Positions 40,611 to 40,965 of a stretch of DNA of 64,000 bases are shown one piece after another; within the stretch, counting starts at the first letter, position 1, and the number at the start of each line of letters is the position of its first letter. Location: assembly GCA_964016885.1 (NCBI GenBank), contig CAXHJY010001767.1, positions 22,057 to 86,056 on the forward strand, read 5' to 3'. The notes under the pieces were generated by a model. It was not told the origin of the DNA, made no database searches, and was given only the letters and a program-made list of their open reading frames with translations. Origin of the DNA: Eledone cirrhosa (lineage: Eukaryota). The position numbers and the translations under genes were made by a program.

Positions 40611-40965
40611 ATTAGAATTGGTGCTCTGAAATAGCGATATATATATATGAATGTATATATAGTGTATTTTGCAATACACTGTATGCTTAATTAAAAGCAT
40701 TTCGAAGACCTTACGCTATTGGTTTAGAGTAGTGACAGTCTCACTTACTTTAATTTTCAGCAAACAGGGGAGATAGAGCTGACAGATCTCTGTTTCGCAC
40801 TTTTTGGTGCTTATCAAAGCTCAGTACTCCGCCTGTTTGCTGAAAATCATGAATGTTTGATTATTTTAGAATTCTAGTAATAATCAGGAACTGATTATAC
40901 AGAGCGGTTGCCGGTCAAGCAGAAATTGAAAATTAGAATTGGTGCTCTGAAATAGCGATATATAT
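40611..40965 (-). mobile_element. HHR family 3 unit bounded by a direct repeat
   Basis: attagaattggtgctctgaaatagcgatatata at 40611 and 40932 (321-bp spacing); homologous to 36290-36610. Confidence 0.8.
40776..40822 (-). ncRNA. Hammerhead motif with U3-A8 core
   Basis: Minus strand: gagct TTGATAA gcac-caaaaa-gtgc GAAA cag-agat-ctg TC agctc. Confidence 0.75.

Follow-up and report, generated by a model that had tools for sequence, protein, structure and literature searches.

A type I hammerhead with a U3–A8 core pair in a 321-bp retrozyme-like repeat of Eledone cirrhosa

Results

A 64,000-nt stretch of the Eledone cirrhosa genome (the window; GenBank contig CAXHJY010001767.1, positions 22,057–86,056) carries on its minus strand, at window positions 40776–40822, a type I hammerhead motif whose core contains a U3–A8 pair in place of C3–G8. 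The motif lies within a 321-bp non-coding repeat that is probably a non-autonomous retrozyme dependent on enzymes supplied by a Penelope-like element (PLE) that targets (TA)n. One genome holds ancestral C3–G8 and derived U3–A8 subfamilies of this repeat, an outgroup, and the step of transition.

Read 5′ to 3′ on the minus strand, the motif comprises the helix I 5′ strand GAGCU (40822–40818); the core strand UUGAUAA (40817–40811), with U3 at 40817 and A8 at 40812; helix II, GCAC/GUGC, with loop CAAAAA and the canonical G10.1–C11.1 pair (40810–40797); GAAA (40796–40793); the 4-bp helix III, ACAG-AGAU-CUGU (40793–40782); a GUC triplet with C17 at 40781 and the predicted cut between 40781 and 40780; and the helix I 3′ strand AGCUC (40780–40776). 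This is the type I layout, in which helix I is open and a (C/U)UGAN(G/A)A core, GAAA, and NUH are set among three helices. Around the ribozyme, helix I continues from the proximal 5 bp through an internal loop into a long distal helix (40751–40849, minus strand). An initial annotation of this DNA (hereafter, the first-pass annotation) had reported that UUGAUAA replaces CUGAUGA with pairing of positions 3 and 8 retained, and the minus-strand reading of 40817–40811 bears this out. The predicted minimum-energy fold of the motif has the hammerhead shape, carried by a long extension of helix I, and none of 200 shuffles folded equally well (z −7.95), with much of the energy supplied by the distal helix. 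A narrow Rfam scan matched Hammerhead_HH9 (RF02275) with E 7.1e-06 and 29.5 bits, below the gathering score of 52; in a scan of the whole window, the best 150 of 374 matches were driven by microsatellites or hairpins alone. Judged by its sequence, the motif is a genuine type I hammerhead with a U3–A8 core pair, for which self-cleavage is predicted.

The full unit, a member of the U3–A8 GCAC subfamily, occupies 40637–40957 (minus strand). At its 3′ end is a 26-bp tail, the start of a second unit (40611–40636, minus strand), and most tails in the family (22 of 34) end as this one does. A strandless (TA)n-rich tract abutting this end (40400–40610, continuing left of 40400) is the likely insertion target. 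Two older copies, both with C3–G8, lie on the plus strand: one of the ACAC subfamily at 36301–36621 (CUGAUGA core at 36442) and one of the ACGC subfamily at 43701–44014 (CUGAUGA core at 43843), respectively 82% and 76% identical to the copy at 40637–40957. The former is preceded by a tandem copy without the core strand (36069–36300), itself preceded by an inverted piece (35987–36068). Searching the 3.0-Gb genome itself at the DNA level (40 of 1674 candidates scored) returned many copies at 95 to 97% identity; the first 30 loci contained 40 hammerhead anchors, of which 38 read UUGAUAA, two were cut by a junction, and none read CUGAUGA. A metagenome scan for the family hammerhead gave no matches.

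Insertion architecture was classified for 77 of 78 non-overlapping loci. Tandem pieces are present in 62 of these and inverted pieces in 42, and a (TA)5 tract flanks 59 at one or both ends. Two near-full tandem units, with two complete hammerheads, are found in seven loci; the window copy itself is not among such tandems. One locus (L096) is filled by an array of tandem units, and the end of another unit is found upstream of a unit. Inversions are frequent in the family, and some break inside the ribozyme. Across the 321-bp unit there is no ORF of at least 120 amino acids. A masked all-against-all comparison of 112 loci revealed no internal sequence common to the unit flanks; the behaviour of the unit is thus that of a non-autonomous element akin to non-LTR retrozymes. 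It is non-coding, contains one type I hammerhead and, at 321 bp, lies within the retrozyme size range of 170 to 400 nt. It also bears the marks of Penelope-type insertion, namely partial tandems, 5′ inverted pieces, a 3′ tail, and a microsatellite target. Partial tandems, inversions, and tails are described at PLE insertions in passages of PMC8557442; the modal tail of 26 bp is slightly shorter than the 30 to 40 bp given there. Overall, the element has the appearance of a non-LTR retrozyme dependent on Penelope.

One young PLE abuts units at two loci (L027 and L099). It has RT and GIY-YIG domains, ends in (TA)n, exists in many copies of 99 to 100% identity, and carries the CxxxxCxxC linker that PMC8557442, in its passages on this feature, describes for the Neptune and Nematis clades. 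This Neptune/Nematis-type PLE likely mobilises the unit; the adjacency at two loci may be a product of the common (TA)n target. The PLE, found in L115–L144, has a U3–A8 hammerhead of its own (L117:2957–2990) with core UUGAAAA, G10.1–C11.1, and a 6-nt palindromic helix III. It is unrelated to the hammerhead of the unit and lies approximately 90 to 150 bp before the end of the element. Its pattern gave 13,409 matches, with U3–A8 in all 100 of the matches listed; C3 occurred in 44, every one with A8, and C3–G8 in none of the 13,409. A diverged relative (L140) has kept U3–A8 and has changed helices. As a monomer, the 141-nt region around the PLE hammerhead is predicted to adopt no hammerhead fold. 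No similarity was found between the unit and the terminal region of this PLE, and blastn found no copy of the PLE in the window. Among 17 window ORFs scanned, none contained GIY-YIG, and the RT-bearing ORFs are LINE-type.

The window also contains other elements. LINE-type RT frames in which a PHD-finger match immediately follows the RT domain lie at 46650–49445 (minus), 12864–13847 (plus), and 6522–7955 (minus), and further RT frames at 17814–19600 and 19990–21379. A hammerhead-like motif of another family, with C3–G8 and a long helix II and itself enclosed in a hairpin, is at 25265–25325 (plus). Hammerhead-like motifs with CUGAAGA cores occur at 41375–41420 (plus) and at 39455 and 4788 (minus); the latter two are copies of one family, and that at 39455 is near a short match to the end of a PLE protein (39666–39722). 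A near-perfect inverted repeat with arms of approximately 34 bp occupies 4825–4899.

To count core pairs across the genome, we used one exact pattern in which positions 3 and 8 alone were varied, so that the counts are lower bounds (decayed copies fail the pattern). It matched 1149 U3–A8, 641 C3–G8, 16 U3–G8, and 24 C3–A8 copies, giving a Watson–Crick 3–8 pair (C–G or U–A) in 1790 of 1830 matches; control patterns gave none. By their helix II and III context (counted by hand), 9 of the 16 U3–G8 and 18 of the 24 C3–A8 copies belong to C3–G8 subfamilies and the others to U3–A8 subfamilies. These single-change rates of 0.5 to 2.8% fit the 2 to 6% divergence of copies from their own subfamily. No U3–G8 or C3–A8 intermediate has been amplified as a subfamily. 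Three U3–G8 copies share one TCAC context, slightly above expectation. CpG decay as a source of C3U or G8A was rejected, as neither base is within a CpG. From 9 C3U and 18 G8A beside 641 C3–G8 copies, two independent neutral transitions would yield approximately 0.25 U3–A8 copies. The first-pass annotation had made copy number the test of its reading, and U3–A8 proves neither single-copy nor present at this neutral rate (1149 versus ~0.25). The 1149 copies are no independent evidence, since U3–A8 represents one event in the family.

That single event emerges from a tree of 103 of 152 copies with two outgroup copies from a distant C3–G8 family. The tree is a ladder leading from C3–G8 subfamilies (helix II ACGC, ACAC/TCAC, TTAC, and ATAC) to U3–A8 subfamilies (GTAC, GCAC, and GCAT), with branch support of 100/96 at the change, in a bootstrap that had not fully settled. 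A tree without the ribozyme columns, built on 140 of 166 rows after omission of those shorter than 270 bp, still requires no more than a single change, with an unstarred support of 74. Both trees indicate that U3–A8 is derived and counts once, and the sequences fit a single origin within the family. Subfamilies later on the ladder retain U3–A8, and their helices II and III change by paired substitutions. Among 59 copies that share the loop and flanks of the transition (counted by hand), 31 combine C3–G8 with A10.1–U11.1 and 24 combine U3–A8 with G10.1–C11.1; the remaining four are four different singletons. The transition branch comprises 19 substitutions, or 21 differences once gaps are counted. 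On this short branch fall C3U and G8A, the replacement of A10.1–U11.1 by G–C, and the completion of a 12-nt helix III palindrome. In the history of the family the centre of the helix III palindrome also shifted from AGCU to GGCC. One 3-kb locus (L107) contains C3–A8, C3–G8, and early U3–A8 copies, from both sides of the transition. The outgroup relative (L126, L139, and L035), a distant 310-bp tandem repeat ~67% identical to the unit, has a C3–G8 hammerhead with a GUA site and U–U at the base of helix II.

Selection on ribozyme structure was assessed over seven steps between subfamily majorities at five pairs, the 3–8 pair and the four pairs of helix II. Six changes were double and none single; the null mean was 0.11, and six was reached in none of 200,000 simulations. 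This test leaves out the U10.1–U11.1 side subfamilies, a one-sided change that is found in 25 of 100 C3–G8 copies among the matches listed (counted by hand) and is also the outgroup state. The invariant core columns do not vary among subfamily majorities (0 of 9 versus 72 of 274 other columns; P ~0.06, a weak contrast), and the difference widens when the outgroup is included (0 of 9 versus 128 of 274; P ~0.004). Private changes, scored in 84 of 161 copies (those not chosen by core pattern), hit the core at 20 of 756 positions (2.6%), positions 3 and 8 at 6.0%, and other columns at 814 of 22,021 (3.7%). A core that is fixed between subfamilies and hit by private changes points to selection on source elements, with decay of inserted copies. 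In a structure alignment of 33 chosen copies, 96.7% of cells pair, versus 32 to 48% in slid controls, and 15 of 26 pairs have changed on both sides; this test is supportive only, as the copies are related and the structure was drawn from them. The sequence data therefore support structural selection on the source elements, as the first-pass annotation had proposed, and do so through the paired changes between subfamilies, six double versus no single.

Its more specific claims fared less evenly. The stem II sequences that it quoted at 36449 and 43850 are correct, and pairing is kept; atgc/gcgt at 43850 is, however, a private C-to-T change from the subfamily ACGC/GCGT that creates a wobble, and not covariation. 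Covariation in stem I, also claimed, was not recovered: the inner 4 bp show no covariation within the family, the stem I differences are private changes, and the fifth pair is nearly private. The fifth pair of the window copy (G–C) occurs in two copies genome-wide, from different subfamilies; a subfamily of its own for this extra pair was rejected on these two matches. The window copy has six private differences from its subfamily majority, including a C-to-A change in the middle of the helix III palindrome. Three of the six (the new helix I G–C pair and loop III change) favour the active monomer fold, and its predicted active-fold probability, 0.46, is unusually high compared with subfamily majorities. 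These fold-favouring changes may reflect chance or template switching.

Monomers of the subfamily majorities are mostly predicted to misfold through pairing of the helix I/core strand to the helix III 5′ strand; their active two-dimensional fold has a predicted probability of at most 0.03. Dimers of all seven U3–A8 subfamilies are predicted to fold best as a double hammerhead, in agreement with the dimer model published for animal type I hammerheads (passages of PMC4209133). A perfect 12-nt helix III palindrome has a predicted dimer duplex energy of −20.1 versus −12.2 kcal/mol, and its 5′ strand is also fully complementary to the helix I/core strand. Restoring C3–G8 in U3–A8 monomer backgrounds lowers the predicted active fraction approximately 100-fold. 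When C3–G8 was placed into the seven U3–A8 dimers, a gap of 0.8 to 4.4 kcal/mol was predicted in four and none in three, so that the misfold relief is modest.

Discussion

We regard it as probable that the 321-bp repeat is a non-autonomous retrozyme whose U3–A8 hammerhead acts in its spread. Self-cleavage of its tandem transcripts would take place at GUC, for the most part in double hammerheads joined through the palindromic helix III, and would yield unit-length and possibly circular RNAs that reverse transcription would place in (TA)n tracts. A lone monomer is predicted to misfold and to remain uncleaved. U3–A8 likely keeps the 3–8 pair and activity enough for continued spread, and inserted copies would then decay neutrally. 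Several points count against this explanation. U3–A8 is one event in the family, and its branch has an unstarred support of 74 in the tree without ribozyme columns; the core-column contrast is weak within the family; the U10.1–U11.1 side subfamilies changed on one side; the unit resembles no part of the partner PLE's terminal region; two near-full tandem units were found in only 7 of 77 loci; eight of nine tested Xenopus retrozyme dimers were uncleaved, according to the relevant part of bioRxiv 10.64898/2026.07.22.740005; and hammerhead cleavage was unneeded for in vitro insertion by an anole PLE (PMC11167929).

Beyond the maintenance of activity, the swap might have been adaptive, answering the misfold caused by the palindrome through rounds of RNA-level selection, a tentative reading that we consider rather doubtful. 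C3U would turn one C–G pair of the inhibitory helix into U–G, raising the active monomer fraction approximately 100-fold; G8A would restore the tertiary 3–8 pair, and G10.1–C11.1 would stabilise helix II. That all five changes share a single branch (19 substitutions) and that no intermediate was amplified would point to such rounds of selection. The basis of this reading is one event together with nearest-neighbour energies that exclude tertiary contacts. If the adaptive reading is true, the family would record, as a dated series from nature, how a ribozyme traversed a fitness valley within its catalytic core.

Alternatively, U3–A8 could have been a passenger, neutral or slightly harmful, that became fixed in a single successful source element, the fold being kept for other reasons, such as RNA stability or recognition by the Penelope protein, with cleavage slow or dispensable. 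The single origin in the family tree fits this alternative, as do the poor in vitro cleavage of minimal PLE hammerheads (reported in passages of PMC4209133) and the dispensability of cleavage for in vitro insertion (PMC11167929). We nevertheless consider it unlikely: the nine unpaired or invariant catalytic positions are constant between subfamilies and in the outgroup, and a structural role alone leaves the joint change of positions 3 and 8 unexplained for this family as well as for the unrelated PLE. Less likely still, the unit could be no independent retrozyme and merely the pLTR of an autonomous PLE not found here, left behind by 5′-truncated insertions. Such a pLTR would show the same tandem, inverted, and tailed architecture, and animal retrozymes are reported as close pLTR relatives (part of bioRxiv 10.64898/2026.07.22.740005); against this stand the lack of common internal sequence beside the unit in the masked comparison of 112 loci, the ends of other units upstream of units, and the locus filled with tandem units. 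The one PLE covered by the pLTR comparison has a terminal region that differs from the unit. The ribozyme reading is unchanged whether or not the unit is a pLTR. That the paired changes arose by mutation, through template switching between hairpin arms during reverse transcription and without selection, would fit the frequent inversions, some breaking within the ribozyme, and the new helix I G–C pair in two copies of different subfamilies, but is hardly credible, because the lone tertiary 3–8 pair, five bases apart, and a 4-bp helix II would presumably be poor substrates and the invariance of unpaired core bases is unexplained.

The ancestral and derived subfamilies, the outgroup, and the transition step lie within one genome, so that the effect of the core swap and its coupling to helices II and III can be assayed using natural sequences. 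At least 14,500 hammerheads in the E. cirrhosa genome (1149 + ~13,400) escape any search that requires CUGANGA. The U3–A8 variant itself is already known, from natural cases in 2011 (PMC3088659) and from PLEs in 2014 (PMC4209133), as passages of both papers document. Those of Perreault et al. (2011) describe covariation of C3–G8 to U3–A8 in several natural hammerheads and state, citing their ref. 32, that U3–A8 ribozymes were already active in vitro; they contain neither subfamily history nor copy counts, both of which are given here. What may be novel is the weakening by C3U, predicted from folding energies, of a misfold due to the new palindrome. We found no paper on misfold relief or on this family, in a search outside which most subscription papers lay; the 2014 and 2020 supplements may list related motifs.

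As in metazoan non-LTR retrozymes, in the parts of Cervera and De la Pena (2020, PMC7229834) and Li et al. (bioRxiv 10.64898/2026.07.22.740005) that describe them, the unit is non-coding, falls within 170 to 400 nt, and combines one type I hammerhead with a palindromic helix III and PLE co-occurrence; U–U at the base of helix II is also present in the axolotl HHR_Amex2 described there. Unlike the elements in those passages, the family is made up mostly of short, scattered insertions that bear PLE-type tails and inversions, in place of long arrays, and it has a U3–A8 core and no pLTR relative found; its circular RNA is putative. Rfam Hammerhead_HH9 (RF02275) shares the type I layout, an identical loop II, and a matching helix I bulge; its model core, in contrast, is C3–G8, and the score is below its gathering threshold. 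The nearest parallel for the core is Cercyon of Schistosoma mansoni, to whose PLEs Cervera and De la Pena (2014, PMC4209133), in the passages concerned, tie ~1,300 U3–A8 motifs: core covariation, large numbers in one animal genome (~1,300 hits there), a PLE context, and predicted action as dimers are common to both. Cercyon is in the minimal-hammerhead set of that source, whereas in the present unit a complete helix III and a long helix I accompany a helix II of 4 bp. The unit differs further from Cercyon, as described in those passages, in being non-coding and in having its C3–G8 ancestors still present in the genome.
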